Positions 31,064 to 63,470 of a stretch of DNA of 64,000 nucleotides are shown one piece after another. The stretch spans positions 9,977 to 73,976 of the forward strand of contig JAYRWD010000026.1 of assembly GCA_041918255.1 (NCBI GenBank), in the 5' to 3' direction. The notes under the pieces were generated by a model that saw only the letters and a program-made list of their open reading frames with translations, did not search any database and was not told where the DNA came from. The stretch comes from Candidatus Dojkabacteria bacterium (GTDB lineage Bacteria; Patescibacteriota; Dojkabacteria; B142; WJKM01). Every line of letters begins with the position of its first letter. Position 1 is the first letter of the stretch. The translations under genes and the position numbers were made by a program.

Positions 31064-31065
31064 CG

Positions 31066-31896: not shown

Positions 31897-31935
31897 GATA
31901 AGCCTATCCAGAACGTCTATAAATGTTACGCCAAT

Positions 31936-32688: not shown

Positions 32689-32721
32689 GATTGCAACCTG
32701 AGGAGTTTCTTTGTATTATAT

Positions 32722-33387
32722 TTGAGAAAGCTAAAAATAATTAATATTATTTTAAAAAATATGAAGCAATTTAAAACATTGGCAAAAGTTGGTTTGGGTT
32801 TAGCTCTATCTTTGGCATCAACATATACAGTTGTAGCCGCTCAGTGTGGAGGTTGGTTGCCAGAATTCCTACAGGGGTTTGTGTGCGAGGATCCAGTAAA
32901 CAATTTAACAAACAGGGTGAAAGTGTTTTTCGTACTAGCTTTCGGAGCAGTAATACTAATGGGAGTTGTGTATACAATTTCGGCTGCGTTGAAGTTCATG
33001 CGAAGTAAGGGTGAAAGCGGAGAGATTGAAAATAGCCAAAAAGCAGTCACGGCGATTTTCTACGGAGTTGCTTCGCTTTTTGTTGGAGTGATTGGTATGG
33101 TTGTGGTCACACTATTCTTTTCTCCCACGGTTATTTTCCCTCAGCAAATTTGTATACAAGCCCCGGATAGCTACGGCTGTTTTGCCTGTCGTAATCCTAA
33201 GAAGGGTTCAAATGTTTCTTTCGTAGATATTTGTAATGCATGTAACGATGTGTCCGAGGCACCACTAAGTGATATTAGTGGAAATGTGACGTGTGCTGAT
33301 GATGTTCCCGCGAATATCTCCGATGATGATATAGTTCTAAAGCTTGATGAGGTAAAAACGGTTGGAACGAAAAAAGTTGGGGTCTAG
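32722..33387 (+). CDS. Pilin-topology paralog
   Basis: A 221-aa product with a signal peptide (…VVAAQ) followed by CGGW...C. Its TM hairpin is VFFVLAFGAVILMGVVYTI / AIFYGVASLFVGVIGMVVVTLFF. A Cys-rich tail follows. Confidence 0.55.
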   Translation: MRKLKIINIILKNMKQFKTLAKVGLGLALSLASTYTVVAAQCGGWLPEFLQGFVCEDPVNNLTNRVKVFFVLAFGAVILMGVVYTISAALKFMRSKGESGEIENSQKAVTAIFYGVASLFVGVIGMVVVTLFFSPTVIFPQQICIQAPDSYGCFACRNPKKGSNVSFVDICNACNDVSEAPLSDISGNVTCADDVPANISDDDIVLKLDEVKTVGTKKVGV

Positions 33388-33586
33388 ATTGGAACAGGAT
33401 TATTCAAATCCGCTTTCTTCAAACTGAATAAAAATTGACTTTATGCGATACCCGAAAAAGGCAACAAATGTGTGTCACACTGAGTTCATCGAGGTGCGAC
33501 ACTATCATATTTTTACCCCTCGACGTGCTTCTGCCAGAGGCAGACAGACAGGGTGACATAATAAATGTAGTTTCGTATAAAGTCTA

Positions 33587-34540
33587 ATGAAGTATAAATT
33601 GCTTTCTTTGTTTGCCATTGCTCTGACTGTTAGCACGGTTTTTTTCACCACGCCAGGAATCGCTCTGGTTAGTGCGCAAAGTCAAGAGGAAGTAAATCCG
33701 CTTTTCGATCTCAGTTCAACCGATCCAATCTATATAAATCTCAATTACGACTGTACAAATATTAAGTGGTCGGAAGGTGCGATAGGGATTTATAGAAAAG
33801 TCTATAAGTCCGGGGACAAATATTATGAAGCCAATCCTCGAATAAACGAAATCCAGCAATATCTAAATGGCAAGCCCTATGCCGAGACCTACTTTCTTTT
33901 TGAAGGCGAAACGGGATTGAGTTTAGAAGAGAGTTCTATTAACAAAAATGATTTCAATGCCACGCCATTCAACGAAATAAAGAGGATTGCTCCCTCGCCT
34001 TTTATTATTCCTAGTGATAATCCAGAGCCTATTTTGAAAGAATACGTTGGCATGCCCCTGTGTGATGGTGCCTATTCCTTTAGTGGAAACGATTTTCTTG
34101 CTCCAAATCAAAAGATGAGAGCAAGTCTCGATAATCAGAACGAAAGTTTCGGAGAGCCAAAAAGTTTTGTCCCAGCAAATTTCGTACCCCCTGTATTGCA
34201 GCAAGCGGAAAATTACTTCGTGGAGATAATATACATTTTTTGGAGTATTATTGGACTAGCAGCAGTTGGGCAGTTATTTGTCATAGGTTTGAAAATCCTG
34301 ACATCAAGCTTTAGCCCGGAGCAAAAAGGAGCTACGTTACGCTCGGTAGCATTATGGGTGGTCGGACTGGCATTGGCCATAGTGGCTATTCCACTTTTGC
34401 AATTTATTTTTAGAATTTTGGACATACAAGACACTAGATGCTTCAAATATACTGAGAATAATGAATTAGTTTACGATCTGACCGTTCCGGGTTTCACGTT
34501 CTTCTTTAATGATACATGTACGTCCGAGGAGAGCTTGTAG
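33587..34540 (+). CDS. Pilin-topology paralog with a roughly 170-aa ectodomain.
   Basis: A 317-aa product with a signal peptide (…LVSAQSQ). Its C-terminal hairpin is FVEIIYIFWSIIGLAAVGQLFVIGL / LRSVALWVVGLALAIVAIPLLQFIF. Confidence 0.55.
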   Translation: MKYKLLSLFAIALTVSTVFFTTPGIALVSAQSQEEVNPLFDLSSTDPIYINLNYDCTNIKWSEGAIGIYRKVYKSGDKYYEANPRINEIQQYLNGKPYAETYFLFEGETGLSLEESSINKNDFNATPFNEIKRIAPSPFIIPSDNPEPILKEYVGMPLCDGAYSFSGNDFLAPNQKMRASLDNQNESFGEPKSFVPANFVPPVLQQAENYFVEIIYIFWSIIGLAAVGQLFVIGLKILTSSFSPEQKGATLRSVALWVVGLALAIVAIPLLQFIFRILDIQDTRCFKYTENNELVYDLTVPGFTFFFNDTCTSEESL

Positions 34541-43151: not shown

Positions 43152-45623
43152 ATGATTCAAGCTGTCCGCATATTAGCACAAATGGATTTTTTCTCCTTAG
43201 TTATGGACCCTGCGTCATTCGTAGATGAAGCAAGCAATGACCCTTCGTTTCTGATAATGGTTTGCCTTATGGCAATATTGGGTCTTGTAATTTTGATTCT
43301 AGCGTATAAGCTATTTATGAAGGGAGTGATGCATGCTTCTATGGAAAAAAAGTCATTAAGCTCAGTTCTCTTTGAAGTTAGACTTCCGCATACGAATGAG
43401 GTCGAGATACAATCAGCCGATCAAATGCTAACGGGGTTTCTTGGCATTGAAAGAGAACTGAAGGGGCTACAAAAATGGTTTGGTTCGAAATATTATATTA
43501 GTTTTGAAATTGTAGCGTTGCCTGAGACTATAAGATTTTTTGTAAATGTCCCAAAGAAATTAGCGACACTTGTAGAAAAACAAATAAATGGTACTTATCC
43601 TGAGGGTGAAGTAATAAGAACGGATGAATATAATATATTTGGACCTGGGCAGAAGGTAGAATTCTGTTCATTGAAGTTAGCTGAGGATCCGTATAAGCCC
43701 ATCCGGACATATGAAGAGCTTTCGCAAGATGGTTTAAGCAGCATTACCTCCGTTATGAATAAAATGGGTCCTGGTGATGCTATGGCGTTACAGATTGTTA
43801 TTACTCCCTCATCAGGAGAGTGGCGCAAAGATGGTCGAAAATACGTAAATAAAATACGAGAGAATAATTCTGATCCGGAAAAATCAAAGATAGAGGTAGA
43901 AGACGAAATACTTGCTGCAATTGAAAAGAAGGCAGAAAAGCCTGGATTTGAATCAGTTGTGAGGATTGTAAGTGTTTCTACGTTAGGAGAAATAGCTAAA
44001 TCAAATTTGGATAACATGGTTTACGCGTTTGATCAGTTTGCTAATCAAAATGGAAATAGGTTTAAAAAAGTTTCATACAAGAAAAGAAAGGAACAAAGGG
44101 AATTCATGAAGTCCTTTTTGTACAGATTCCCCTCGAAAGCGATGATTTTAAACTCCTCTGAATTAGCTACTATTTTTCACTATCCAAATAGCAAAATTAC
44201 TACTCCGCACATACATTGGCTTACCTCGAAACGTGCTCCAGCAAGTGGAGAAGTCTTATCTCATTTCGAAAATGCAGGGGTATACCTAGGAGTGAATGAA
44301 TATAGGGGCACGAAAAGAAAGATATTCATGCGCTATGACGATAGGCGACGACATTTTTATTATGTTGGTAAAACAGGTTCTGGTAAATCTGTAATGTTGC
44401 AGCATATGGCCTATCAGGATATTTTAAACGGACAGGGATTAGCATTCCTGGATCCTCACGGGGACGCCGTTGAATGGCTTATGGATCGAATACCGGCCGA
44501 ACGTGTCGAGGACATTATTTATTTCAACCCTGCGGATACGGATCGTCCAATAGGTATGAATATCATGGAATGGTATACCGAACATGATAAACACATTATT
44601 GTGAATGGTTTCTTGGGTCTTCTTAATAAATTATTTGATCCTTACAATCAAGGTATTACTGGACCACGTTTCGAGCAGGCCGTAAGGAATGCGATGTTGA
44701 CTGTTATGGCAAAAAAAGGCACTAGCTTGGCTGAAGTGATGACACTTTTACAAAATGACAAGATAGCAGAGAAATACTTTCCATATTTAAACGATGATAT
44801 TGTAAAACGCTATTGGACAGAACAAATAGCCCATACCCAGGAATTTCACAAATCGGAAATTTTAGGATATATAACCTCTAAGTTTGACAGATTTATCACA
44901 AATAAATTGATGCGAAATATTATTGCTCAAAGCAAATCTGGCTTTGATTTCCGTACAGTTATGGATGAAGGCAAGGTTTTATTAATTAACTTATCCAAGG
45001 GATTAATCGGGGAAGAAAACTCACAATTCCTAGGGCTATTATTGATACCCAAAATGTTGCAAGCAGCGATGAGTAGGGCGAATATTGAAGCTGGATCAAG
45101 GCGGGATTTTTATCTATATGTAGACGAGTTCCAGAATTTTGCGACGCCTGATTTTGCTCAAATTCTTTCGGAGGCTCGAAAATACAGGCTTAACCTAATT
45201 GTCGCTAACCAATACATCGCCCAAATGACGGATGAGATCCGTGATGCTGTTTTCGGTAATGCAGGGTCTATAGGTAGTTTCAAAGTGGGAGTGAATGATG
45301 CGCAGTACTTGGCGAATGAATTTGAGCCAGTATTTAATCAAAACGACTTAATCAATTTGGAAAATTTGAATATGTATATCAAGTTACTTGTAAAAGGTGA
45401 ATATCCTCCTCCATTTTCGTTAAAATTAGATACGGATTTGGTCTTCAAAACACCACCGAATAAAGAAATTGGTCAGCTTGTTAGGGAACTATCGCGACTG
45501 AAGTATGGGAAAGACGCAAAGCTGGTCGATGCCGAGATAAAGGCAAGAGAACAAGAAGATGGACCAGGCAATATTGTATCACAACCACCGCCTCCGGCGT
45601 ATAAGCCACCGCTGAGTAGCTAA
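43152..45623 (+). CDS. VirD4/TraG/TraD-family type IV coupling-protein-like P-loop ATPase
   Basis: An N-terminal TM helix. Walker A YYVGKTGSGKS is followed by LDPHGD, which resembles the T4CP DPKGE motif. Walker B is YVDEFQNFA, with GNAGSIGSFKVG beyond it. The product is 823 aa. Confidence 0.55.
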   Translation: MIQAVRILAQMDFFSLVMDPASFVDEASNDPSFLIMVCLMAILGLVILILAYKLFMKGVMHASMEKKSLSSVLFEVRLPHTNEVEIQSADQMLTGFLGIERELKGLQKWFGSKYYISFEIVALPETIRFFVNVPKKLATLVEKQINGTYPEGEVIRTDEYNIFGPGQKVEFCSLKLAEDPYKPIRTYEELSQDGLSSITSVMNKMGPGDAMALQIVITPSSGEWRKDGRKYVNKIRENNSDPEKSKIEVEDEILAAIEKKAEKPGFESVVRIVSVSTLGEIAKSNLDNMVYAFDQFANQNGNRFKKVSYKKRKEQREFMKSFLYRFPSKAMILNSSELATIFHYPNSKITTPHIHWLTSKRAPASGEVLSHFENAGVYLGVNEYRGTKRKIFMRYDDRRRHFYYVGKTGSGKSVMLQHMAYQDILNGQGLAFLDPHGDAVEWLMDRIPAERVEDIIYFNPADTDRPIGMNIMEWYTEHDKHIIVNGFLGLLNKLFDPYNQGITGPRFEQAVRNAMLTVMAKKGTSLAEVMTLLQNDKIAEKYFPYLNDDIVKRYWTEQIAHTQEFHKSEILGYITSKFDRFITNKLMRNIIAQSKSGFDFRTVMDEGKVLLINLSKGLIGEENSQFLGLLLIPKMLQAAMSRANIEAGSRRDFYLYVDEFQNFATPDFAQILSEARKYRLNLIVANQYIAQMTDEIRDAVFGNAGSIGSFKVGVNDAQYLANEFEPVFNQNDLINLENLNMYIKLLVKGEYPPPFSLKLDTDLVFKTPPNKEIGQLVRELSRLKYGKDAKLVDAEIKAREQEDGPGNIVSQPPPPAYKPPLSS

Positions 45624-45901: not shown

Positions 45902-47347
45902 TTGAAATATTTAAAATATCAATGCGTATTATGTCTGCTAGTTATTTCACTTTGCTTGAGCATAAAGTTAGTGTCGAGGGTTGAAGCCGCTTCTGTTGAT
46001 ATTGATGGGAATGGCGTGCTTACTTATACTGCCGAAGCTGGGGAAACAAATCTTTTGACTTTTGAGCAAAGCAGAGATGATTATATCTTTAGGGAAAGCG
46101 CAATCAATATTTCGGTAGAAAGTGATGACTGTACTGGGGATGGGACAAAGGCAGTCACTTGTGATAATAGTAATGTGGAGAGTATAGAAATTTATCTGGA
46201 GGATGAGAACGATAAAGTCTGGATAGAATCGTTTGAACACGTAGTGACATTAGACCTTGGCAGCGGAAGCGACCAAGCGACATGGTACTTCGATAACAGA
46301 TTCACCCAAGAGGATGGAGAGATAATGGGCGGAGGCGGAGCTGATACTTTGATTGTAGAAGGTGATTCTACAAGCGACGAGTTTGATGTGCTTGAAAGCG
46401 GAGGAAATTTAAGGATCAAGCGAAACGTACCGACCCCGAAAGCGTATTTAGATATAAGCGATTTTGCATATTTAGATATCAAACTTGAAGGAGGGGATGA
46501 TACACTCTCGGTTCTTGGAAATCTAGATGACGTAGAGGATATTTCTTCCATGGAGATTACCATAGAGGGTGGCGAGGGGAATGATGAAATCGATGCCTCT
46601 GATATTGATGATGGGATCTTAGACGATATGAATTTGTTAATATTTGGCGATGAAGGTGACGATCTATTAAATGGTAGTAAAGGGAAAGATTCCATAGATT
46701 GTGGAGAAGGGGATGACCAGTATGAAGATAACGGTGGATTTGATGAAATTGACGATACGTGTAATGAAACAGTGGTGGTCGCAACTGAGCCATTCTCCGA
46801 TATAGATGGAAACATTTTCAAGTCTTACATCGAGTCACTGTATGCAAATGGTATAGTCTCGGGTAGTCAGGGAAGATTTTTTCCAAATGAGTATCTCACA
46901 AGAGGACAATATGCGAAAGTTATATTTTTGGGCTTGGAATTACCCGTTAATGTAGGTTGCGGTGGGTTCCCCGATGTGAATGGAACTGATGTATTTTATA
47001 ATTATATTACCTCTTTGAAATGTCACGGGATTGTGAGTGGCAAAAGCAATGGAACTTATGGGTCTGAGGAACCAATTAGTAGGGGAGCGGCAGCGAAGAT
47101 AGCAGTGGAGGCATTGAAATACAAAAACGCTAATATTTTCTTTACTGATGGTTCTATACAGTTCAACGATTTGAATACTTCAAATCCTTTTTATGGCTAT
47201 ATTATTCTAATTGCTTCAGCAAGGGTTAATGGCGAGGCGATAATGGGGGGTAGTAATGGGAACTTTATGCCGAGTTCATTTATGACCAGAGGGGAAATGG
47301 CAAAAGTAGTGAGCAACACCCGCAGTTATTGGCAAGCTAGCGTGTAA
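45902..47347 (+). CDS. Surface protein with an Asp-rich (Ca-binding-like) region and three C-terminal S-layer-homology (SLH) domains.
   Basis: A signal peptide, a D/G-rich repeat region (GDEGDDLLNGSKGKDSIDCGEGDD), then three repeats of the type FxDIDGNIFKSYIESLYANGIVSGS...FFPNEYLTRGQYAKVI. Confidence 0.65.
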   Translation: MKYLKYQCVLCLLVISLCLSIKLVSRVEAASVDIDGNGVLTYTAEAGETNLLTFEQSRDDYIFRESAINISVESDDCTGDGTKAVTCDNSNVESIEIYLEDENDKVWIESFEHVVTLDLGSGSDQATWYFDNRFTQEDGEIMGGGGADTLIVEGDSTSDEFDVLESGGNLRIKRNVPTPKAYLDISDFAYLDIKLEGGDDTLSVLGNLDDVEDISSMEITIEGGEGNDEIDASDIDDGILDDMNLLIFGDEGDDLLNGSKGKDSIDCGEGDDQYEDNGGFDEIDDTCNETVVVATEPFSDIDGNIFKSYIESLYANGIVSGSQGRFFPNEYLTRGQYAKVIFLGLELPVNVGCGGFPDVNGTDVFYNYITSLKCHGIVSGKSNGTYGSEEPISRGAAAKIAVEALKYKNANIFFTDGSIQFNDLNTSNPFYGYIILIASARVNGEAIMGGSNGNFMPSSFMTRGEMAKVVSNTRSYWQASV

Positions 47348-47421
47348 TGCTCCAGGGTGGACTCGAACCACCGACCCCCGCTTTATAAGAACGATGCTCT
47401 AACCGACTGAGCTACTGGAGC
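47348..47421 (-). tRNA. tRNA-Ile (anticodon UAU)
   Basis: Minus-strand sequence GCTCCAG-TA-GCTC-AGTCGGTTA-GAGC-A-TCGTT-CTTATAA-AGCGG-GGGTC-GGTGG-TTCGAGT-CCACC-CTGGAGC-A. All stems pair, with two G-U wobbles in the anticodon stem, and CCA is not encoded. Its 3' end abuts the SLH gene stop. Confidence 0.8.
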
Positions 47422-47582: not shown

Positions 47583-48461
47583 CTATAGGGAGGCGGTTTT
47601 GCTGGAATTTAAATTTCGTTTTGTTTTTACCATCTCTAGATACTTTTCAGTGCTGGTAATACGTTTGTGACCTACTATTTCCGCGATTTGTTCAAGTGGT
47701 ACACCGTGTTCCAGCTGGAAGACAATGAAAGTATTTCGTATATCATTGACAGTTGCGTCATCTATACCGGATTTTTTGAACGTATTATTGATAGTTGTAC
47801 GGATATTCCTAATCAATACTTGCTTTCCAGATTTGGTGGTAAATAAGTAGCCTTCGTCATCTTGCGGACGGGGGCGAATTTTGAGATATTTTCTGATAGC
47901 TTCTACGCACGTCTCGTTTAGGATTATAGTTCGGGCCGGATTGCTCGCATAGGATTCGATGGTAGCGGTTGGGACTTTGGCATCAAGCTCGAGCTGGGAA
48001 ATTTTTAACCTGGACAATTCGCCGATCCGCATGCCTGTTTGCAATAAAACTTCTACCATGGCGTAAAGCCTTGGGCTTGATCTAGCCGTATCCCGGAGTG
48101 CTTTATATTCTAGACTATTGAGAATTCGTCTCTGTTTAGTTTCAAACTTTGGATGCACTATACCTTCTGCAATATTGGCGTTTACATGATTTTCGGAGTG
48201 CAAAAATTTGAACAAAGTCCGAAAACTGTTAATTTTTCTAGAAATTGTTTTTAAGGTGAATTTCTGCTCGGTTACCAGCTCTTGGATATATAACTCTAGA
48301 TGGTTTGTTTTGTAATCTGATAATAGAGAAATTTCGTTTTTGTATCTGCCAAATAATTGCTCGATATCCTTCTTGTAGGCTATGATAGTTGAGGGAGAAC
48401 GTTTTTTTTCTTTAAGATTGGCAATAAAGAGTTCTAGAGCTTGAGAATGTGGAATTGACAT
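47583..48461 (-). CDS. Tyrosine site-specific recombinase (XerC/XerD or integrase family)
   Basis: An N-terminal SAM-like core-binding domain. The C-terminal catalytic region is IRNTFIVFQLEHGVPLEQIAEIVGHKRITSTEKYLEM, with the nucleophile Tyr in KYLEM. It is 292 aa. Confidence 0.75.
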   Translation of the reverse strand: MSIPHSQALELFIANLKEKKRSPSTIIAYKKDIEQLFGRYKNEISLLSDYKTNHLELYIQELVTEQKFTLKTISRKINSFRTLFKFLHSENHVNANIAEGIVHPKFETKQRRILNSLEYKALRDTARSSPRLYAMVEVLLQTGMRIGELSRLKISQLELDAKVPTATIESYASNPARTIILNETCVEAIRKYLKIRPRPQDDEGYLFTTKSGKQVLIRNIRTTINNTFKKSGIDDATVNDIRNTFIVFQLEHGVPLEQIAEIVGHKRITSTEKYLEMVKTKRNLNSSKTASL

Positions 48462-50131: not shown

Positions 50132-51508
50132 ATGAAGATAAAAAATACGCGAATGAGGTTTGGAAAGCATTATGTTGGGTTGTTCGTGGCTGTAGTAATA
50201 ATTTTAGCAATATCCGCAGGCGTATATCTGTATCGTGAGGCCAATCCCGGAGCAAGTAATAAGTGGAATATAAATGAATATGTTGATATAACAAAGCCAC
50301 CTTATAACGCGATTGGAGATGGTATCGCTGATAACTATCAAGTATTGAGCTCAGCATTAGCAGCATTAAATAATGGACAGTATCCAGTCTTGTATTTCCC
50401 TCCTGGTGAGTATAGAATTGCTATCCCTCCGGGCGTATACGCGCTTCGAGTACCGTCCACGATGGCCATTCTAGGACAAAAGGATGTAACTACTATTAAA
50501 TTTGATATTACAAATACAGGGCTTTATTCAGCACTTAAATTCGAAACAGGGGAAGATTTTATGCTTAAGGATATTATTCTCGAGGGAACAAAACTAGAAA
50601 TACCCTTTTCACAGTCTTCGTATTGGACCGTTGTTTCAGTGAATAAATCCTCGGGCATTCATTTTGAAGGAATTACTATTAAGAATGGGCAACGATTCGG
50701 ACTTGAAGTGATGGGTAGTAATGATGTAAATATTACGGATAGCAATTTCATAGGTAACGGCTGGGCAGAGGAAGTAGCTGGAAATGCTCCGCAACATCTG
50801 ATAGGCGGGGTCCGAGTGGTTAATTCTACCGATGGTACAAGAAGTTCGCGGGTCTATATCGCAAGGTCAAACTTTAGCAATAATGGCGGAGAGGGCCTAC
50901 TTGTGAGTCGAAGTGATAACCTCCGCATTAAAGCTAATACGGTAAGTAATAATGGACTTTATAGATATCATGGCAATCAAGATGGTATCGCTCTTTCGGG
51001 ATTAACAGATTCGAGGATTTCAAAAAATATTGTCTCAGGGAATTTTTCTGATGGGATTGTTCTAACTGTGTCCTCGAACATCGATTCTTCACATGATGTT
51101 GAAATATATGATAACAAGTCATTTAATAATGGTGGCAACGGGATTTTGCTGTATAGTTTGCCGGATAGTAATACTGGAGTTATGTCATTTGTGATTATAG
51201 ATTCAAACGAAGTGTATAACAATGGGTTGGGAAATACCTCTGGGTATCCGTATTCTTTTGATGGAATCAGAGTTTCACCTTGGGGGGCAGGAAATCGAAT
51301 CACGGGAGTAAGCATTAGAAATAATGTTTGTTATGATACGCGCACTGGTTTGGCAAGAACACAAATGCATGGGATCGGACAACTTCCGAGAGAAATCGAT
51401 ACTAATGGAGGTATAAGCAAGGTGGGGGTTATACTGGGAAGTAATGATTGTTATAACAATGAACATGCCCAGATATGGCTCTGGGAATTAGAGCAAATGA
51501 GATATTAG
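50132..51508 (+). CDS. Membrane-anchored right-handed parallel beta-helix (pectate-lyase-fold) protein
   Basis: An N-terminal TM anchor, then PYNAIGDGIADNYQVLSSALAA. Many NxG/xNNG beta-helix rungs follow (NNGGEGLLVSRSDNLRIKANTVSNNG...). Confidence 0.6.
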   Translation: MKIKNTRMRFGKHYVGLFVAVVIILAISAGVYLYREANPGASNKWNINEYVDITKPPYNAIGDGIADNYQVLSSALAALNNGQYPVLYFPPGEYRIAIPPGVYALRVPSTMAILGQKDVTTIKFDITNTGLYSALKFETGEDFMLKDIILEGTKLEIPFSQSSYWTVVSVNKSSGIHFEGITIKNGQRFGLEVMGSNDVNITDSNFIGNGWAEEVAGNAPQHLIGGVRVVNSTDGTRSSRVYIARSNFSNNGGEGLLVSRSDNLRIKANTVSNNGLYRYHGNQDGIALSGLTDSRISKNIVSGNFSDGIVLTVSSNIDSSHDVEIYDNKSFNNGGNGILLYSLPDSNTGVMSFVIIDSNEVYNNGLGNTSGYPYSFDGIRVSPWGAGNRITGVSIRNNVCYDTRTGLARTQMHGIGQLPREIDTNGGISKVGVILGSNDCYNNEHAQIWLWELEQMRY

Positions 51509-53874: not shown

Positions 53875-53956
53875 CTTGATTAATCTCGAAGTCGGGCGCA
53901 GTCTATAATGCTGGTTGATTGTGGGTCTATATGTTGGAAATAAGGGACCATGGTAC

Positions 53957-54238
53957 TTATCTTCTTCCATTTCTGCGGTACAAAGGTAGTAGGGTCCGAG
54001 TGCCTGTTCCTTTTTCTAGAAGGTCCAAGTCTTTCTCCCGCTGTCTAACTTCGTGTGCACCAGCATTTTTGAGTCGGCTAGCAAGCCAAGCCTCCCGTGC
54101 CACAACACCGGGATCTACCGCCAGTGCAGCATTGTCTAATTCGGCTAGTTGTGCATCTGTCAAAGGTGTCCACTTATCGGGGGGTTCATTAGCAGAGTTA
54201 GCACCGGTCGCAGCATTAAGTTGTTCGGCCATGTACAT
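53957..54238 (-). CDS. Small Ala-rich ORF inside a GC-rich island, possibly a foreign or relic gene fragment.
   Basis: The 93-aa product, MAEQLNAATGANSANEPPDKWTPLTDAQLAELDNAALAVDPGVVAREAWLASRLKNAGAHEVRQ..., has a high-GC-organism amino-acid profile. The local GC is far above the window background. Confidence 0.3.
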   Translation of the reverse strand: MYMAEQLNAATGANSANEPPDKWTPLTDAQLAELDNAALAVDPGVVAREAWLASRLKNAGAHEVRQREKDLDLLEKGTGTRTLLPLYRRNGRR

Positions 54239-54671
54239 GCGTATAAAACTATATTGTAAGTATATATATATATATTCATTTTGTCAATAGGGATTATTTT
54301 TTTGTGCAAGATGGGATTTGTTAGACAAATAATCTTTGTTTTGTAGTCAGTAAATTTTTCAAGTACTGAAAAAAATTATAAATTGTGGGGAGCTAGTTTT
54401 TTTGCGTTCAGATATTGAAAGGCTCTAATGCCTATGTTTGTAATTATTATCACTATTTTGAAATTAAGTATTTTATACTTAAGGAAAGCTTGTTCATTCC
54501 AAAAGGCTTAGAGATGAAGAATAACACAAGGAATTGAAAAAATTCGGGAGCGGTTTTATAGATAGAAATAGTAGAAATATTTTAGGATTTTCGTTATGCT
54601 AGGATAGGCAATAATTATGTTTGTATTAGGTTGCACAGAATAATTTTAAATAGTTATTTAGAATAGACGCG

Positions 54672-57600
54672 ATGTCATTTTCAATTGTACTATTAGACGA
54701 TGATTTTGTTTTTAGACAGACGGTCAATATCGTATTGACTAACCTGTCAAAACGAACCGGCATTGATCTAAAAGTTTTTACCTCTGGAAATGGAGTAGAA
54801 GGATTGGGATATGTATACGTTACCAATCCCGACCTAATCATTGTAGACACAACATTGCCCAAATATGCAGGCAAGGAGCTCATAGAGTTTATTATCTCAA
54901 ACCAACGAATCAGCAAAAATTCAATTGTAGTCACAGACCAAGGAGATCGAAAAGTATCCATCAAAGAGCCAGGATCAATAATACTCAGCAAAAAATCTAA
55001 AACTTTTTTAAAAGATTTATCACAGATAGTTCTGGAAATCGCACGGAAGCACGACAAATCTCTTCCCCAACAGGTTGGTAAAGTAGCTGGACTGAATATA
55101 GGGCAAAGAGTGGTCGAACTTGCCAATAAAAGCGATATCGAGGCTATGAAAGCCGAGCGCAGCAAGAGCTTTTTTCTACGGAAGTGGCATTATGTCGTAA
55201 GATTTGGTTATGAAGTGATATTAAGCATTTTACTGACCAGTTTATACATCAAGTTTAGGAGACCTGAAGACGCGAATATTGAAGGTTCTCCCGCTGACGA
55301 GAAATATTATCGAGTTCGGGTGTATCCCACCATAAGTACCATTGGAACCACAGCCGTATTTTTCTTATTGCAAGTAATTCTTTTCATACTAGGCGGCGTC
55401 ACGGTTATGAATCTAAGATTCGATAGCATATTCGCAGCATGGAAGGGGAGTGAAGTCATCGATTTAGCAAACAGTGAATTTGATACAGATGCGATTGAAT
55501 ATGATGACGGAGTGTTAAGACTAAAAAACCTAAATAGCGTTGTTATTGAACCCCAAGAACAAGAAATACCTTTGTCGGGTCCCGTTGACGAAAGCTCTGA
55601 GGATGTCGATTCGGTTGATGAAGTAGACGATGGGGAGAGTCCGGTACCTACCGACATCGAAATTCCTTCGGAGGTGGCGAGTCCCACAGAAGAGGTAGTC
55701 CCGACTGAGGAGGTGGGTGAAGAATCATCAGATATTACAAATGAGGAGGATCAGCAGATTCCCTCTGTCGAACCCGAAGTAATTGTGGATGAAAATTCCG
55801 GTGAAGGAAATGTTCAAACAGAAGAATCAGGACAGAGCGAGCCTATTCAAACTGAGGAGTCTGGATCAAGCGAGAATAGTACATCTGTTGATGCTGATAG
55901 CAATAGTTTAGATTCGAACGAAGGTTCTGATGCAACTGTTTTAGGTATAGAAGATGAACGCCCCATTCGGACAAAACCTGAATATTCAACTGAGAAACCA
56001 TCAGTAGTGTTTAACGAAGTAGTTAAATTTTCGCAGTTAGTAAGCATACTTGAAGAAAGCAGGGATAACGATTCATTGAGTAGTATGCTTTCGCCAATAT
56101 ATGGATATACTAAAGGACAATATCCCAAAAATGGGATTACCTATCAATTATCTCCTGATGGAGAACATTGGTTCTTCTATGATGGAGCTGGATGGACCGT
56201 AACAGAGCAGGGCTATATGACATCAAACTCGATCCAGGAAGTAAATTTGAATCTGTCAAAGTTTGAAAGCGCGCTTGGCGAGGTATATCTAAGAGCTTTC
56301 TTCATCTCGGATGGAGATACTTTAGTACAATTAAAAGCTCTTACAATTAATCGCGATCTAAATCTTATAACCAAGCTCTTAGAGGAGCAACAGTGGATTT
56401 TACCCGAAGAATTATCCCTTCCGACCAGTATCTTAGTACAGGCTATGCGACCGGTGGTGTTGAGCGCTGCTACCGTGGATGGAACAAAAATAGTGACTGG
56501 ACGAGTAGAAATGCCCGAAGGTATTACGGTCAGTGAAAGCGAGTTGCAGAATCTGGTGGTTGAAATTTATCAAACAGAAGCTGATGATGAAGCGATGGAA
56601 CCTATTGGACGAGAAAAGTTGATAGGGACAACTAATGTACAGAGAGTCACACGTAGTGATGGCATCGTCGAGGATCAATTTATGCTTGAGGTTCAAGGGG
56701 AGGGAGGGAATTTTGTAAGTGCTAGAATTGTCTACAAACCAGATAGTCCAGAAGAAACACCAGTCGAAGTGGAGTCGGTTGAATCAGATTTAATTCATAA
56801 CGCCTCTTTCACTATAACAAGCAATGCGGATACGGGTGATGCTAGCCCGGGGAATGGTGTCTGCAATACCGGTGGTGCAATATGTACCCTCAGAGCTGCG
56901 ATACAGGAGACTAATGCACTTGCCAATGGGGCAAGTCCGGATAATATACTCTCAAATCTATCTGCCTTGCAAAGATTAATAACCCCAGATACCGCGCTTC
57001 CGGATATTACCGATCCAGTTAGTATTGATCTATCTCAAGAGGTAGGTCGTGCTCCTACGATGGTTGTACGCTTGGATGGAAGTGATATCGCAGATCCAAA
57101 TACGGTGAATGGATTAACTATAACAGCTGGGTCTAGTACTGTCCAAGGTTTTGCAATTTTCAACTTTGGAGGAAATGGGATAAAACTTTCGACTGGGAAT
57201 AGTAACGTAGTTAAGTGGATGAACATCGGAACAAATATTTTGGAAGAATCGAACCCAAACGGTCAGAATGGTATTCATATTTTGAATTCAGGAAATAACT
57301 CGATCGGTATAACTGGCAGTACTACCATCATTAGTAGCAATACGCTCAATGGAATTTTGATCGAGGGGGCCCAGTCAACTGGCAATACGGTCTATAACTG
57401 CAAAGTAGGGGTTAATGGTGCAGGGACAGCCGCCCTCGGGAACACGCAGAGTGGGATAAAAATACTTAATGCTGACTCGAATATTATTGGTGACACACTA
57501 AAGTCAAACACTATCTCGGGAAATACTCTGGATGGGATAGAGCTTGACGGAGCAGACTCAAATACTATTAGGGCTAATTTTATTGGAGACTATACAAATG

Positions 57601-60600
57601 CCGGCAGTTCATTTGTAAACGCTAGATATGGTATACAGCTAACAACTTCGACTTCAAATACAATCGCGTCTAATTATATTACTGGTAATTCTTATGGTGG
57701 AGTATTGCTCGCAGGCACGTCGGATGTTAATACATTGAACGCTAATACTGTTGGTATTACATATTCAGGTGCGACCAAAGGCAATGGGACAAACAAGAGT
57801 GGTATCTATATACAGGACTCCTCAGATAATTTACTGGGTACATCCTCTTCAAGCAATAAGAATATAGTTTCCGGACATGATGTTGCTGGTATTGTAATAG
57901 AGGGGCTAAATGCTACCGCGAGTGGCAATTTGTTGAAGTATAATTATGTAGGGACGAATACTAGTGGCGCAATTTCGTCCGGTTTCGAGAATGATAGAGC
58001 TGGGATAATTATTGCGGGGGATGCAGATTCTAATATCATTGGTGGAGATTGGAATGATGAGGGTAATGTCATAAAGGGAAATGGATCAGGAATCCTCGTA
58101 ATGAGCTATAGTAATTTGTCAAAAAATCCTGATGGAAATAGTATAGTGAGCAATACGATCAGTGGAAATACGGGTTATACTGAAACCGGACTTGGAATAG
58201 ATTTGGCAGATGATACCGATCAAGATTTAGAGCCGGATAGCGGTCAGGGGGGTAATAGTAATGATGCCGGTGATAGTGATGGCGGGGCAAATGGATATCT
58301 TAATTATCCGGTTATCACGCAGGCAAGTACCTCCCTTGGCGTGACTACAATAGATTATACGATAGATATCGAATCCTCCCCTTATTATCTTCTGCAATTT
58401 TTTTCTGTAACTAGTGAAGATCCTACTGGATATGGAGAGGCTGACACATTATTGTGTCAGGAAATTGTCCCATTAGCTGATATCGGAAATACTCTTGATT
58501 GCGGTGGCGCTTCATTAGTAGATGGTGTGGCGTTGTCGATAACGGTTACCCTGTGTGAAGATAGTGGGTGTTCTGCATTAGGTGCAACGTCCGAATTTGG
58601 GCTAAATATAATTGGTACAAGCGATTCGTTTGTTGTAAATTCTATAGCGGATTCCGCAGATGCGTCCCCTGGGGATGGAGTATGTGAAACTGCTAGCTCT
58701 ACATGTACGTTGAGGGCCGCGATACAGGAAATGAATACTAAGCCATCTGGCGGGTATATCCTATTTGATTTGAATCCAGCTGATGGACAGCACTATTGCT
58801 ACGTTGATGATGGAGTCGAAGGACAAATTACAAATAAAACTACTATTGCAACTGCGATTAATAACGATTCAGATGCCGCTTGTGGTGGTGGTACTGTAGA
58901 TTCGGATTTTCCGAATAGCTGGTTCATGATTAGTCCGAATTCCGCCTATCCAAGTATAGCCGTACCTGTCGTTCTAGATGGGTATTCACAAGACGGTACT
59001 GCAGAAGCAACTTCTGACTCAGAAGCCATTCTTAAAATAGCAATCCGTTACACATTTAGCGGATCACAATTATTCAATCTTAATAGCTCTGGAATCACTT
59101 TTAAAGGGGTGTCTATAGGTATGGGAACGTCTGGTTCCGGTGGAGATCCTAATGTTAACTTTGCAATTAGAATCTCTGCGGGAGGAGTGAATGTTTCCGG
59201 TAATTATATTGGAACAGGACCGTCTGGATACGAAACCAGTTTGGGTCTAGCGCAGGATGGGGTGTCTGTTAACTCAAGTGGTGATGGTATCACTATTGGT
59301 GGGTCAGATCCAGCTAATAGAAATATTATCTCCGGAAATCATTACAATGGTATAGCTATCAACACCTCGGGGGTTACGGTGTCGGGGAATTATATAGGTT
59401 TAGCTAGAGATGGACTAACTGACCTGGCAAATAGCTACTGGGGAATTGCTGTATACGCTGGAGATAACATCATAGGTGGTGATAGCAGCGATGAAGTAAA
59501 CTATATCGGGGGAAACACATTAGGCGGAATTTTACTAAGTGGAGCCAGTTCAAGTGAAAATCAGGTATTAGGCAATTATATTGGGTTTGGAAGAGATGGT
59601 TTGACTGCGGTAGGAAATCTAGGTCCAGGTATTCAGTTCGAGTTAGGCGCGAATAATAATCGTATAGGGAGTATGTTATCGAACGCGGCGAATCTAGTTG
59701 CGAATAATTCCGGCAACGGGGTGCAAATTGCTGATGGGGATTCGATCGGAAATTCGATACTTAGAAACTCGATATACATGAATGATGGCATTTCGGTTGA
59801 CTTAGGGCCTGATGGTTTCACACCTAACGACCCTAATGATATTGATTCCGGTGCAAATACGCTTCTGAATTATCCAGATATTTCGTCTGTTCGATATACC
59901 TCCGAGGGCGTGGAAATTTATGGAGCGCTTGAGGCGGACGCGAATGTTTCAAATTATTACCGAATATTTTTTTACAGTAATCCGAGTGGTAGCGGATCCT
60001 ATGAAGGTAAATACTATTTGGGTTACACAGACGTGAGTTTAGATTCGGGGATTTATGATTTTCAATCAACACCTATCATCATCCAGGGGACAAAGCCTGC
60101 TAGTGGAAATAACGCAATTACATCGATGGCTGTGGCATGTGATGCTACTCCATGTGTAACATTCGCTGATTCTTCAGAATTTAGCGGGGCATTTGATGCT
60201 GTTGGTAATAACGGTGAAGTGGATATTCCTGAAGAGGTTGAAGTAGGGGATCAAATTGATCTTCAAGTTGTGGATTATGACGTCGACCGAGATGCTAGTA
60301 CGCCCGAAACGATTTCTTTGACAACTGTAAACGATAGAACAGGCGAGGAAGAGGTTATTATTCTGACTGAGACCGAACCGGGCAGTGGAATTTTTGAGGC
60401 CACTCTAGATACTCTAGAGAATCAGGTGGCGGGCGACAATAGCGATGGCGACGTGAATGTTTCCGTTGATGATACTCTAACCACTTCTTATGACGACGAA
60501 CTTACCTCTGATGGAGATACGCTCGTTGTCTTATTCGCCACAAGCGTAGTTGCCCAGGGTTCTACGGATCCGGAAATTACGCCAACGCCTACTCCGACAC

Positions 60601-61709
60601 CAATATCTACACCAACACCCACTTCATCGTCTGGTCGCTCAAATGGATCGGAGTATAACGGTACGAGTGGTAGTAATTCGCAGAGCCAAGACCTTGAAGT
60701 GACCCCAGATACTATCAGGGTCATATTGCCACCATCTCTAAGTAGAAATATAAACTCATGCACAACCCATATTGATATCCGAGATGTACAGATTAGGAGA
60801 AATGTCGAAGAAACTTCGGCTCAATTATGTTGGACTACGACGCCAGAGATTACAGTTGGGACGGTTAAATATGGTAGGGGAGGGATTCTCGATAGAGGTA
60901 CTCTACGTAATGGACGTTGCGCTACTCTAAACAATTTAGCACTTGATGCTACATATAACTTCGAAATTAGCGAAAGTGAAGCAGGTTGTGAGGGTATAAC
61001 TATAGACGGAAGCTTCTATATGCCTAAACAAGGTTCGGATTCAAACTTCGTGTTCATTGGCGGGACTAATCCCCTTCAAGAAAAGAGAGAGGCAAAACTT
61101 TTGGAAGTAACGGGTCTGATAACTGGGGTTGCGTCCATAAGTACGATGTTTGTTCTGGTGCCCTTTAATTTTCTTCTCAATCCAAATATGTTTCGTTTCG
61201 GATTGTTAACATTAGTAGGTCTGAAGCGCAAAAAGAATGGAATTGTATATGATATTTCAACTGGGAAGCCTATTACTTATTCAAAGGTCGAAACATTTGT
61301 CGATGGGCTACTAACTGACAGGACAGCCTCTGGTTTAGATGGTAGATTTGGTCTATCTTTAAGTAAGCCGGGAAGGGTAAAAGTTGTGGTTAGTCATGAG
61401 GGATATTATGATCGAGAAGTGATTGTAGATATCGGAGAGGGGGAAACTAAAATTCAAAAGATAGGGCTGATTGAAAAAAGCGAATATGATAAAGAAAAAG
61501 GAAAATTAGATAATCTCAAAAATAAATTGATAGTCCATAAATATTACGCCAATACGGCGTTGATTCTCCTCGGGCTATCGTCTTCGATATTTTCCTACGT
61601 TGCTGTAGGAACTAAGCTTGGAATTATAAGTATATTGGTATTTGTGGGAACTAGTGCTTATGCCTTGGCGTATAGTAAATACGGGAAAAAGTCTGTAGAA
61701 GTAGATTGA
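54672..61709 (+). CDS. Giant (2345-aa) membrane-anchored surface protein. It has an N-terminal receiver-like domain, TM helices, acidic repeats, tandem parallel beta-helix modules, a Pro/Thr linker, a CarbopepD_reg/Cna-B-like domain and C-terminal TM helices.
   Basis: The frame stays open for 7 kb. The N-terminal roughly 120 aa have CheY-like placement of acidic residues, Thr and Lys (LLDDD...LIIVD...VVTD...SKKSK). There are two copies of the C-x7-CTLRAAIQE-x-N module and dozens of NxG rungs. Other elements are TPTPTPTPISTPTPT, GIVYDISTGKPITYSKVETFVDG and terminal hydrophobic helices. Confidence 0.8.
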   Translation: MSFSIVLLDDDFVFRQTVNIVLTNLSKRTGIDLKVFTSGNGVEGLGYVYVTNPDLIIVDTTLPKYAGKELIEFIISNQRISKNSIVVTDQGDRKVSIKEPGSIILSKKSKTFLKDLSQIVLEIARKHDKSLPQQVGKVAGLNIGQRVVELANKSDIEAMKAERSKSFFLRKWHYVVRFGYEVILSILLTSLYIKFRRPEDANIEGSPADEKYYRVRVYPTISTIGTTAVFFLLQVILFILGGVTVMNLRFDSIFAAWKGSEVIDLANSEFDTDAIEYDDGVLRLKNLNSVVIEPQEQEIPLSGPVDESSEDVDSVDEVDDGESPVPTDIEIPSEVASPTEEVVPTEEVGEESSDITNEEDQQIPSVEPEVIVDENSGEGNVQTEESGQSEPIQTEESGSSENSTSVDADSNSLDSNEGSDATVLGIEDERPIRTKPEYSTEKPSVVFNEVVKFSQLVSILEESRDNDSLSSMLSPIYGYTKGQYPKNGITYQLSPDGEHWFFYDGAGWTVTEQGYMTSNSIQEVNLNLSKFESALGEVYLRAFFISDGDTLVQLKALTINRDLNLITKLLEEQQWILPEELSLPTSILVQAMRPVVLSAATVDGTKIVTGRVEMPEGITVSESELQNLVVEIYQTEADDEAMEPIGREKLIGTTNVQRVTRSDGIVEDQFMLEVQGEGGNFVSARIVYKPDSPEETPVEVESVESDLIHNASFTITSNADTGDASPGNGVCNTGGAICTLRAAIQETNALANGASPDNILSNLSALQRLITPDTALPDITDPVSIDLSQEVGRAPTMVVRLDGSDIADPNTVNGLTITAGSSTVQGFAIFNFGGNGIKLSTGNSNVVKWMNIGTNILEESNPNGQNGIHILNSGNNSIGITGSTTIISSNTLNGILIEGAQSTGNTVYNCKVGVNGAGTAALGNTQSGIKILNADSNIIGDTLKSNTISGNTLDGIELDGADSNTIRANFIGDYTNAGSSFVNARYGIQLTTSTSNTIASNYITGNSYGGVLLAGTSDVNTLNANTVGITYSGATKGNGTNKSGIYIQDSSDNLLGTSSSSNKNIVSGHDVAGIVIEGLNATASGNLLKYNYVGTNTSGAISSGFENDRAGIIIAGDADSNIIGGDWNDEGNVIKGNGSGILVMSYSNLSKNPDGNSIVSNTISGNTGYTETGLGIDLADDTDQDLEPDSGQGGNSNDAGDSDGGANGYLNYPVITQASTSLGVTTIDYTIDIESSPYYLLQFFSVTSEDPTGYGEADTLLCQEIVPLADIGNTLDCGGASLVDGVALSITVTLCEDSGCSALGATSEFGLNIIGTSDSFVVNSIADSADASPGDGVCETASSTCTLRAAIQEMNTKPSGGYILFDLNPADGQHYCYVDDGVEGQITNKTTIATAINNDSDAACGGGTVDSDFPNSWFMISPNSAYPSIAVPVVLDGYSQDGTAEATSDSEAILKIAIRYTFSGSQLFNLNSSGITFKGVSIGMGTSGSGGDPNVNFAIRISAGGVNVSGNYIGTGPSGYETSLGLAQDGVSVNSSGDGITIGGSDPANRNIISGNHYNGIAINTSGVTVSGNYIGLARDGLTDLANSYWGIAVYAGDNIIGGDSSDEVNYIGGNTLGGILLSGASSSENQVLGNYIGFGRDGLTAVGNLGPGIQFELGANNNRIGSMLSNAANLVANNSGNGVQIADGDSIGNSILRNSIYMNDGISVDLGPDGFTPNDPNDIDSGANTLLNYPDISSVRYTSEGVEIYGALEADANVSNYYRIFFYSNPSGSGSYEGKYYLGYTDVSLDSGIYDFQSTPIIIQGTKPASGNNAITSMAVACDATPCVTFADSSEFSGAFDAVGNNGEVDIPEEVEVGDQIDLQVVDYDVDRDASTPETISLTTVNDRTGEEEVIILTETEPGSGIFEATLDTLENQVAGDNSDGDVNVSVDDTLTTSYDDELTSDGDTLVVLFATSVVAQGSTDPEITPTPTPTPISTPTPTSSSGRSNGSEYNGTSGSNSQSQDLEVTPDTIRVILPPSLSRNINSCTTHIDIRDVQIRRNVEETSAQLCWTTTPEITVGTVKYGRGGILDRGTLRNGRCATLNNLALDATYNFEISESEAGCEGITIDGSFYMPKQGSDSNFVFIGGTNPLQEKREAKLLEVTGLITGVASISTMFVLVPFNFLLNPNMFRFGLLTLVGLKRKKNGIVYDISTGKPITYSKVETFVDGLLTDRTASGLDGRFGLSLSKPGRVKVVVSHEGYYDREVIVDIGEGETKIQKIGLIEKSEYDKEKGKLDNLKNKLIVHKYYANTALILLGLSSSIFSYVAVGTKLGIISILVFVGTSAYALAYSKYGKKSVEVD

Positions 61710-62111: not shown

Positions 62112-63470
62112 TTAGTCCCTTTCTAGCGAAGTTCCCCCTCCGTTATTGGTCGTTGTTATTTTTTGAGGGGGCGTTATGGTTGCTTTACCTCCGCCGACTT
62201 CGATCTGAGTTGGGTTGGGATAAGCCCTAGTACCTTTCCCTGGACTTGGCGGTTGACAGTTAAAGGATTTAGGTGTCAAAAGACAAGCAAAAGGTCCTCC
62301 ATACGCGCCAATGTCATTTCGTGATCCATCAGGATCATTAGATAGAAAGTCGGTATCACCAGCGTTCACTGCTGGCGAACTACCTTTTTGGATTCTGAAA
62401 TCGCTTTTTTCTATAGAAATAAATTTTGGAGCGACATTTAATAAATTAGTAGTGTCGGGTGTATAGGGTTCCTGGTTGTACCGAACTAGTTCATGGTTGC
62501 CCAAATTATCACTCAAATTATATTTAAAATCTGGAATTGCGGTGGCGGCTAGACCGTAAATTAAGAAGATAACCGAATTGCCCCCGCTAATGATGTTGTT
62601 GCGTATTGAGATTTCTTGAATTGTAGAACCGGTGATATGTATACTATCTCGAAGATTATAAAAAGTATTGTTTAAAATATTTCCTGAAGTAAAGTTCGCC
62701 AGGTAAATGCCATTTAAACCACTGAATATATTTGACTTTAGATACAAATTAGAGATTTCCGCTTCGGCGAATAAGCCTCCGATAACATCGTAGTTATTAA
62801 ACACGTTCCCGGTTATGTCTAGTATGTCAATGTGATGGCTTTCGTCTAATGTACTGATACCATAACATCTTGCGTAACAGTCAAAAACTGATTGATCAAT
62901 TTTCACGTTTCGTGCGTTACCAAGGAGTATTTGGTTGTTTTGGGATGAGTTAAAATAAGACATAGAAACATGAAGGTCTGCAATTGTTGAGTCGATCAGA
63001 ACACCCCCCCGGGTTCCTAGATTAAACCGGATATTGATTACATTCAGGCTTTCTACCGCGTAAAAGATATATGCTCCATCTGAATCATTCACTGTTAGTT
63101 CGGTCCCATTCCCTTCCCCTTGTAGGGTCAAAATTTTATTTATATTAATGCTGGTTGCTGGCATCTGATAATGCCCACTCTTAATGAGTATGGTATCTCC
63201 GTCCTGTGCGACATTTACTGCTTGGCGTATGGCTTCACCGTTAGGTTGTACTGCCTGTACAGGATAGTCGCACTCTCGTCGGACTTCTGAACAGACTACA
63301 AAAGTTCTTGGCTCTGAAGCTTTGGAAGCAACCTCGGTCGGCTCTTTGTCGCTAACTGCCACAGCAATTATCGCAAACAATAATCCAAGTATTAGAAATC
63401 CCGCGCCTAATAATAAAGTGAAATTTCTAGTTTTCGGGGCAGACATTGCGGTTGAATTTTCGAGCTTCAT
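62112..63470 (-). CDS. Membrane-anchored parallel beta-helix (NosD/pectate-lyase-like) protein with a Pro-rich C-tail.
   Basis: An N-terminal TM helix (FTLLLGAGFLILGLLFAIIAVAV), then DGDTILIKSGHYQMP and repeated NN/G beta-helix rungs. The C-terminus is PPSPGKGTRAYPNPTQ. Confidence 0.6.
   Translation of the reverse strand: MKLENSTAMSAPKTRNFTLLLGAGFLILGLLFAIIAVAVSDKEPTEVASKASEPRTFVVCSEVRRECDYPVQAVQPNGEAIRQAVNVAQDGDTILIKSGHYQMPATSININKILTLQGEGNGTELTVNDSDGAYIFYAVESLNVINIRFNLGTRGGVLIDSTIADLHVSMSYFNSSQNNQILLGNARNVKIDQSVFDCYARCYGISTLDESHHIDILDITGNVFNNYDVIGGLFAEAEISNLYLKSNIFSGLNGIYLANFTSGNILNNTFYNLRDSIHITGSTIQEISIRNNIISGGNSVIFLIYGLAATAIPDFKYNLSDNLGNHELVRYNQEPYTPDTTNLLNVAPKFISIEKSDFRIQKGSSPAVNAGDTDFLSNDPDGSRNDIGAYGGPFACLLTPKSFNCQPPSPGKGTRAYPNPTQIEVGGGKATITPPQKITTTNNGGGTSLERD

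Follow-up and report, generated by a model that had tools for sequence, protein, structure and literature searches.

A CheY-like receiver domain at the head of a family of giant, probably extracellular proteins in Candidatus Dojkabacteria

The question raised by this locus is what a signal-receiver domain could be doing at the head of a giant surface protein. In a 64,000-nt stretch of a Candidatus Dojkabacteria genome (assembly GCA_041918255.1, contig JAYRWD010000026.1, positions 9,977 to 73,976 of the forward strand; hereafter the window), one gene encodes a protein of 2345 amino acids (aa). A sequence-only reading of it had described a CheY-like receiver on the cytoplasmic side of the membrane, two transmembrane (TM) helices and an extracellular giant, and had taken this as a sign of phosphorylation-controlled surface-protein behaviour. 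We found that residues 1–127 do have the receiver fold, with the acidic pocket intact and the Lys conserved, and that this domain belongs to an N-terminal module shared by a whole family of proteins with varying cargo. Our reading of the module, which we favour with modest confidence, is that it is a lineage-specific unit for export and anchoring, of a type found in Dojkabacteria within the candidate phyla radiation (CPR), with a built-in regulatory receiver and with its cargo outside the cell.

The receiver domain and its family

The N-terminal domain was identified by both sequence and structure. In a Pfam search, residues 1–150 matched PF00072 (Response_reg) with E=7.4e-7 and 29.8 bits, a precomputed match to the same family exists for most homologues, and about 30 NCBIfam response-regulator models matched residues 4–95. 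When the family profile was compared with Spo0F (2.5e-8), D9 and D10 were aligned with D10 and D11 of Spo0F, and D59 with its phospho-acceptor D54. An AlphaFold2 (AF2) model of residues 1–300, calculated from an alignment of 33 sequences, had a mean predicted local distance difference test score (pLDDT) of 86.8 and a predicted TM-score (pTM) of 0.74, with pLDDT above 90 across most of the receiver (REC), in which the order of elements was β1-α1-β2-α2-β3-α3-β4-β5-α5. In a Foldseek search against the PDB, all of the 50 top matches were receivers, including Rcp1, Spo0F, RR468, DivK and CheY, with TM-scores to the target of 0.65–0.83 for single-domain receiver chains. The CheY-like receiver proposed from the sequence was borne out by these matches.

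We then counted residue conservation over the 172 family members retrieved, fewer of which were aligned at some positions. The acidic pair was formed by Asp (148 of 165) or Glu (15 of 165) at the position of D9 and by Asp (137 of 165) at that of D10; the phospho-acceptor position, D59, was Asp in 169 of the 172 members, and the Lys that follows β5, K107, was kept in 165. The equivalent of the Thr/Ser switch, located through the Spo0F alignment, fell on position 89, which varied across the family (H50, T28, Q15, Y13, V12, S12); the query has D89 there, and its T88 lies one residue early. Of the residues named in the sequence-only reading, the LLDDD stretch (D9–D11), the Asp of LIIVD (D59) and the Lys were present, but T88 did not correspond to a conserved switch. 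Two surface stretches, NGVEGLG and DTTLPKYSG, were almost invariant across the family.

A search with residues 1–270 returned ten relatives that have REC, both of the hydrophobic helices that follow it and the loop between them, and a full-length search returned about 40 proteins of 1400–2750 aa with the same N-terminal module. We further built a family profile from residues 1–300 and compared it with 1.84 billion cluster representatives, obtaining 185 matches at E<=1e-30, 399 at 1e-10 and 12,649 at 1e-3, a sharp step which separates the family from generic receivers. At least 1000 aa were found in 100 of the 172 members, the longest having 4258 aa, and a complete short form, a 413-aa protein encoded within an 83-kb contig, consisted of the module and a single extracellular domain of the 'mid' type (Table 1). 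The family can be recognized by the signature NGVEGLG...DTTLPKYSG...FRVRxYPT, and its members are labelled in the databases as "response regulator", "CheY-like chemotaxis protein" or "CSLREA domain-containing protein".

In a locus scan with one genome per species, 41 genomic loci were found, and nearly all of the specifically named records were metagenome-assembled genomes (MAGs) of Candidatus Dojkabacteria. Each MAG carried 2–4 family copies, which formed tandem pairs at three loci (L013, L018 and L023), and one member was found in the complete 862-kb genome AP024679.1. Between paralogues of the same MAG the module was 31–53% identical, while the cargo had no detectable similarity in 7 of 20 pairs; the cargo domains of the family included beta-helix/CSLREA, DUF2341/Laminin_G, cadherin-like, Calx-beta and SdrD_B domains. 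Given that the module is conserved while the cargo varies, the module behaves as a cargo-independent N-terminal unit. The architecture had been called unusual: we found no description of a receiver-headed giant surface protein in the literature searched, but with a family of about 185 clusters it is not unique.

At one locus (L002), a 2268-aa DUF2341/Laminin_G giant that has no receiver module (3099–9905, +) was found directly upstream of a 267-aa family member (10001–11072, +). The latter is followed by an overlapping 97-aa open reading frame (ORF) and may be a frameshifted or decaying copy.

Membrane topology and cargo

Behind the receiver, the AF2 model contained a linker helix, in whose ANxSD motif D155 was kept in 137 of the 172 members, and then two hydrophobic helices, TM1 and TM2, separated by a basic loop in which N202, D209, R214, Y218 and P219 were each 87–96% conserved. 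Insertion energies, taken as the best 19-residue window of the summed Hessa scale in 77 distinct homologues, differed between the two helices: the mean was +2.05 for TM1, with values below 0 in 5 homologues, and −1.43 for TM2, with values below 0 in 62. The mean numbers of K+R and D+E were 4.3 and 2.0 before TM1, 5.5 and 3.6 in the loop between TM1 and TM2, and 1.5 and 3.0 after TM2. By these charge and hydropathy rules, TM1 probably does not span the membrane and is cytoplasmic or interfacial, and the loop is probably cytoplasmic as well. In the simplest consistent model only TM2 spans, crossing from inside to outside and leaving the cargo extracellular. The two helices that had been read from the sequence do exist as hydrophobic segments, but the charges and the C-terminal anchors argue that only the second one spans; with REC inside and two spanning helices, the giant part would be back in the cytoplasm, so the topology proposed earlier cannot be right.

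The C-terminal end gave a second view of the topology. Seventeen long homologues end in a single hydrophobic helix; in most of them it has acidic sequence before it and, directly behind it, a tight K/R cluster (RRRNT, RRKW, KKKHSR, RKRKHPR and the like), as is typical of stop-transfer anchors whose tail is cytoplasmic. The query has three hydrophobic segments in this part (residues 2146–2184, 2291–2312 and 2316–2334), as predicted, and the TM4-TM5 arrangement recurred in 54 of the 100 long homologues. Between TM3 and TM4 lies a CarboxypepD_reg-like beta-sandwich, with a PF13620 score of 31.6 bits against a gathering cutoff of 32.3 and with precomputed PF13620/PF13715 matches at the same place in homologues. 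This domain had been assigned to the extracellular part. The matches speak for a domain of this kind, but because the basic cluster after TM3 has a mean of 4.05 K/R and 0.14 D/E in 37 homologues, the domain is probably cytoplasmic; like REC, it contains no Cys and has 13% K/R. In many long homologues (among P0013–P0056) the final helical hairpin is followed by a second CarboxypepD_reg-like domain, often with a conserved (S/N)PF(S/G) at the very C-terminus, whereas the query has neither and ends 11 residues past TM5.

Composition separated the two ends of the protein from the part between them. All 17 Cys residues, most of them closely paired, fell within residues 731–2106 and none in the terminal modules, and the K+R content was about 1–10% (mostly 3–7%) in the cargo against 13–15% in both terminal modules. 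The C-terminal anchors, the restriction of Cys to the cargo, its low K/R content and its domains of extracellular type together place the cargo outside the cell, in agreement with the sequence-only reading on the bulk of the protein.

The cargo of the query begins with an acidic spacer. It had been described as acidic repeats, but Tandem Repeats Finder detected no array in it, only an 18-bp repeat in two copies, and we regard it as a low-complexity acidic region. The family-specific mid domain, which is the sole extracellular domain of the short family members (413–430 aa), was modelled by AF2 with a pLDDT of 81.8 and gave no match in Pfam and PDB searches. It is followed by two CSLREA/beta-helix modules, with Cys pairs at 731/738 and 1338/1345, respectively. 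Their scores exceeded the curated cut-offs for TIGR04214 (45 against 25 bits, two copies), PF13229 (35.7 against 25.9) and PF05048 (25.0 against 23.6), by which they are bona fide members of the CSLREA/beta-helix class. As BLASTP aligned the two with 4e-13 and 32% identity, the duplication seen in the sequence was upheld, as was the Pro/Thr linker behind them. No Pfam match was obtained for the membrane-proximal region at residues 2040–2135.

Table 1. Features of the giant gene and its product in the window
Feature	Residues	Coordinates	Strand	Basis or remark
Whole gene, with stop	1–2345	54672..61709	+	Single uninterrupted ORF, ATG start
Receiver (REC) domain	1–127	54672..55052	+	Pfam PF00072, AF2, Foldseek, Spo0F profile match
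Linker helix	141–163	55092..55160	+	AF2 helix; conserved ANxSD motif
Helix TM1	172–195	55185..55256	+	AF2 helix 167–195; weakly hydrophobic, conserved polar stripe (Q/E181, S185)
Basic loop, DxNIxQxxxDxxxFRVRxYPT	196–220	55257..55331	+	Conserved; would act as n-region of TM2
Helix TM2	221–246	55332..55409	+	Strongly hydrophobic; signal-anchor or signal-peptide-like
Post-TM2 motif NLRFDSIFA↓A, candidate AxA-type signal-peptidase site		55410..55439	+	A255 conservation
Acidic low-complexity spacer	261–480	55452..56111	+	27% D/E
Family-specific mid domain, ITYQLSPDGxxWYY...	481–600	56112..56471	+	Common to 21 homologues including P0004 and P0008
CSLREA and right-handed beta-helix module 1	~715–1310	56814..58601	+	TIGR04214, PF13229, PF05048; CxxxxxxCTLRAAI motif
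CSLREA and beta-helix module 2	1311–1900	58602..60371	+	TIGR04214 at residues 1320–1355
Pro/Thr linker PEITPTPTPTPISTPTPT	1967–1984	60570..60623	+	Read from translation
Cys-containing membrane-proximal extracellular region	2040–2135	60789..61076	+	Cys pairs 2030/2053 and 2083/2106
Stop-transfer region: TM3a, short TM3b, then KRKK	2146–2169 (TM3a), 2173–2184 (TM3b)	61107..61241	+	Hydropathy
CarboxypepD_reg-like beta-sandwich, probably cytoplasmic	2190–2263	61239..61460	+	PF13620, E=2.1e-7
TM4, TM5 and basic tail SKYGKKSVEVD	2291–2312 (TM4), 2316–2334 (TM5)	61542..61706	+	Hydropathy

A putative export and anchor module and its alternatives

In the reading that we favour, the module would comprise about 250 residues: a cytoplasmic receiver, a helical linker, a weak helix, a basic loop and a strong helix of the signal-anchor or signal-peptide kind. 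TM2 would take the chain that follows it through the membrane. The cargo, in this protein the acidic spacer, the mid domain, the two CSLREA/beta-helix modules and the Pro/Thr stalk, would lie outside the cell and be tied back by the C-terminal stop-transfer helix, the probably cytoplasmic beta-sandwich and the helical hairpin. The receiver would then be the cytoplasmic control handle of the module. D59 might be phosphorylated, with a shared kinase or a small phosphodonor as the source, or be unphosphorylated, and we infer an effect on the cargo as follows: the state of the receiver would be passed through α5, the linker and the juxtamembrane loop to the signal-anchor helix, where it would set export, cleavage or clustering of whatever cargo is attached, so that one input could govern the whole surface repertoire. 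In the strongest form of this idea, which is put forward only tentatively, phosphorylation of the receiver would directly decide whether giant adhesin-like proteins are exported, cleaved or clustered in Dojkabacteria, and the family would be one of response regulators with an extracellular output. Since the paralogues share their receiver surface, a single kinase or a metabolic phosphodonor such as acetyl phosphate could then switch the host-attachment repertoire.

Several results weigh against this reading. The PF00072 score of the query was 0.4 bits below the gathering threshold (29.8 against 30.2). Helix α4 was missing from the AF2 model, in which a 12-residue loop links β4 to β5, the switch position was Thr or Ser in just 40 of the 172 homologues, and no Pro follows K107; the canonical output face is therefore absent. 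The AxA-like motif after TM2 was just moderately enriched, being found in 57 of 63 distinct tails (90%) against 48% of background (random cargo) windows, and it lies about 9 residues from the hydrophobic core, charged ones included, which is long for a signal-peptidase site. The topology is a rule-based one, derived with our own scripts from hydropathy and the positive-inside rule. Furthermore, the 723 kb of sequence around some 45 family loci contained a single histidine kinase, which has an OmpR-type regulator of its own, and an all-against-all clustering of the ORFs at 42 loci revealed no conserved partner gene beside the family members; the most recurrent neighbour family occurred in at most 7 of the 42 and reflected the synteny of close relatives.

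The kinase search covered the fetched loci, by motifs and jackhmmer. The kinase that it found, with the arrangement HAMP-HisKA-HATPase_c (locus L045), has orthologues in other Dojkabacteria, so that kinases exist in the lineage and yet are unlinked to the family genes. In the window, a Pfam scan of about 40 larger ORFs (most of the ORFs of at least 150 aa) found no kinase domain, and the REC of the giant protein was the only one. An orphan histidine kinase, for which the sequence-only reading had suggested a search, was not found among these ORFs, and the giant gene differs from canonical two-component regulators, which have a kinase encoded beside them. At L045, a stand-alone 185-aa receiver of the family type that has no membrane helices (3704–4261, +) lies 3 kb from the pair of OmpR-type regulator and HAMP histidine kinase (7017–8126, −; 8098–8820, −).

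These results bear on a first alternative, a pseudo-receiver that has kept the fold, is not phosphorylated and serves as a dimerisation or docking domain for a common cytoplasmic partner such as the cytoskeleton or the secretion or pilus machinery. The loss of the Thr/Ser switch, α4 and the Lys-Pro pair would be expected of it, and the failure to find a kinase in the window or, apart from the L045 pair, within 10 kb of about 45 related loci agrees with it. The number of two-component systems encoded by CPR genomes is small in general. NGVEGLG and DTTLPKYSG are also conserved far beyond what is usual in receivers, which fits a fixed protein contact. On the other hand, pseudo-receivers usually lose the metal/phosphate pocket, which is complete here at 83–98% over 172 diverged sequences, and a conserved kinase family does exist in Dojkabacteria. 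As judged from the residue pattern, the receiver has kept its phosphorylation pocket and lacks the canonical output face, and all paralogues have a fixed surface beside the active site in common. We regard a purely structural receiver as a possibility to be taken seriously, but as an unlikely one.

A second alternative concerns the fate of TM2, which may be cleaved, leaving a REC-bearing stub, or may be kept as a signal anchor. If signal peptidase cuts after SIFA (A255), a piece of about 255 aa with REC, helix and TM2 would become a small membrane protein of its own, and the mature giant would be held by its C-terminal anchor alone, or be released in homologues that have none; such an anchor was missing in 29 of the 100 long homologues. 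This alternative overlaps with our preferred reading, with the difference that the receiver would gate or report export and would not control the mature adhesin.

TM2 does have the layout of a signal peptide, with a basic n-region (K+R 5.5), a hydrophobic h-region (−1.43) and a SIFA/xxA motif. The residue at −1, A255, was Ala in 90 of 95 aligned homologues. In several sub-families with unrelated cargo, the first cargo domain begins 10–15 residues past TM2, just after a motif with a small or aliphatic residue at −3 and Ala at −1 (SIFA↓A, VSA↓A, TEA↓F, TKA↓L, VLA↓A). The position is also that of a true leader: P0039, a classical CSLREA protein that has no module, starts with an ordinary signal peptide ending in ...SASALG↓ETFTVVTTDDD...C...C.SFRAAV, and in P0035, P0037, P0041 and P0047 TM2 ends in ...TKA↓LATYVVDSTAD...C...CTLRAAI at the same distance. 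Ordinary secreted proteins encoded in the window use AxA sites as well. Against cleavage, the motif is only about 2-fold above background, the c-region is long and charged, and the flanking NxRxES is more conserved than signal peptidase would need. TM2 starts at residue 221, behind the receiver and the linker and not at the extreme N-terminus of the precursor, so it can be no more than an internal signal or a signal anchor, and cleavable internal signal peptides behind a cytoplasmic domain of 200 residues are rare in bacteria. We consider a cleaved leader doubtful.

The preferred topology also had to be compared with one in which REC and two spanning helices return the chain and the whole giant is cytoplasmic. 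Simple hydropathy predicts two hydrophobic helices in many members and AF2 draws both of them long, but the basic-tailed C-terminal anchors of the homologues, the paired Cys confined to the cargo, the cargo domains of typical extracellular type, the basic loop behind a weakly hydrophobic TM1 and the position of TM2, equivalent to that of a signal peptide, all contradict it, and we rejected it as very improbable. Least probable of all is an artefact in which REC is a separate upstream gene, translation starts at an internal Met (e.g. M159) or the contig is an assembly chimera: although the sequence upstream of 54672 gave no clear Shine-Dalgarno or promoter match, no stop separates REC from the rest of the 2345-aa frame, which runs to the stop codon at 61707–61709, M159 is not conserved among homologues, the start of the giant protein is aligned with their starts, about 100 long homologues, independent of each other and drawn from many assemblies (the complete genome AP024679.1 among them), have the same architecture, and the module begins no more than 40 residues from the N-terminus in 170 of 172 members, so that the fused upstream small gene against which the sequence-only reading had cautioned was rejected and REC is translated as part of the giant.

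Genomic setting, related systems and implications

An identical 2345-aa protein was called on a public 10-kb Logan contig (SRR26835467_171573). The giant gene is preceded by an AT-rich spacer of 380 bp and followed by a tRNA-Ser on the opposite strand, and scans for promoters and terminators at its start and end gave nothing above the shuffle expectation on the + strand. At 53919–54290, the + strand ORF with a TTG start (123 aa) is probably not a real gene; on the public contig a − strand ORF at 53957–54238 is called instead, in front of which a sigma-70-like site with an 11/12 match is located (54287..54259, −). To either side of the giant gene, at 50132–51508 (+) and 62112–63470 (−), lie genes for two more membrane-anchored beta-helix proteins (Beta_helix/NosD; weak DUF5123), a sign that surface proteins with beta-helices may be clustered here.

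Elsewhere in the window, dnaN and dnaA (20435–23164, −) and a change of sign of the GC skew near 22 kb indicate the region of a chromosomal replication origin. A run of secreted proteins of no known function (28515–34540) opens a stretch up to 48461 which also contains SbcCD-like genes, a SpoIID-domain protein, a VirD4/TraG-like coupling protein (43152–45623), an SLH-domain protein (45902–47347), a tRNA-Ile with the unusual anticodon TAT (47348–47421, −) and a tyrosine recombinase (47583–48461, −). This stretch may be an integrated conjugative element or the remnant of one.

Compared with known systems, the receiver itself is closest in sequence and structure to Spo0F, CheY, DivK and Rcp1 (PF00072), with which it shares the (βα) fold, the acidic pair after β1, the Asp after β3 and the Lys after β5. 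Those proteins are soluble, whereas here the domain is followed by membrane helices and by as many as 4000 residues outside the cell, and α4, a conserved Thr/Ser, Lys-Pro and an adjacent kinase are all lacking. In function, the nearest analogue would be the control of LapA by LapD and LapG in Pseudomonas, an inside-out control of a giant adhesin in a diderm cell that uses a separate cyclic di-GMP receptor, a Cys protease in the periplasm and type I secretion with an RTX-type adhesin. The likeness is one of function only, the retention of a giant repeat adhesin at the surface being decided through the membrane by a signalling domain in the cytoplasm; in the present case, in a CPR cell presumed to be monoderm, that domain is a receiver and part of the adhesin chain, and no components of the Lap type were found among the neighbours in the window or the recurrent neighbours of the family.

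Giants of the Ebh type in Staphylococcus have a YSIRK-type signal peptide, a long chain and a C-terminal TM anchor with a basic tail. The present protein resembles them in its very long extracellular chain, its modular repeats and its C-terminal TM helix with a basic cytoplasmic tail, but about 200 cytoplasmic residues including the receiver precede its signal-like helix. Its cargo modules share with classical CSLREA proteins (TIGR04214, PF13229) the CxxxxxxC[ST]LRAAI motif followed by beta-helix repeats; the place of the normal signal peptide of such proteins (P0039) is taken by TM2 of the receiver module. Membrane-anchored outputs of response regulators are rare and small and occur in one or two genera, as exemplified by MetOD3 of a few methanogens (Galperin et al. 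2018, PMC5847659). MetOD3 likewise joins a receiver to a membrane-anchored C-terminal part, but it has no sequence relation to the present family, and outputs of its type have no large extracellular cargo. CheY-like domains in giant proteins are mentioned in passing for Actinobacteria and Omnitrophota, in an architecture which, as far as those brief mentions go, differs from the present one.

Inside the cell, receivers act on transcription factors, enzymes and protein-protein switches. A conserved family that carries one within the export and anchor end of its large extracellular proteins would represent a further, new class of output. The family lends itself to study, with a clear signature, short members of about 400 aa that are tractable for biochemistry, and a member in the complete genome AP024679.1. 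Such a family would also point to how ultra-small, host-dependent CPR bacteria with very few regulators control their presumed attachment proteins, and, in the strongest form of the idea, the whole attachment repertoire of an episymbiotic, genome-reduced bacterium could be under one switch.

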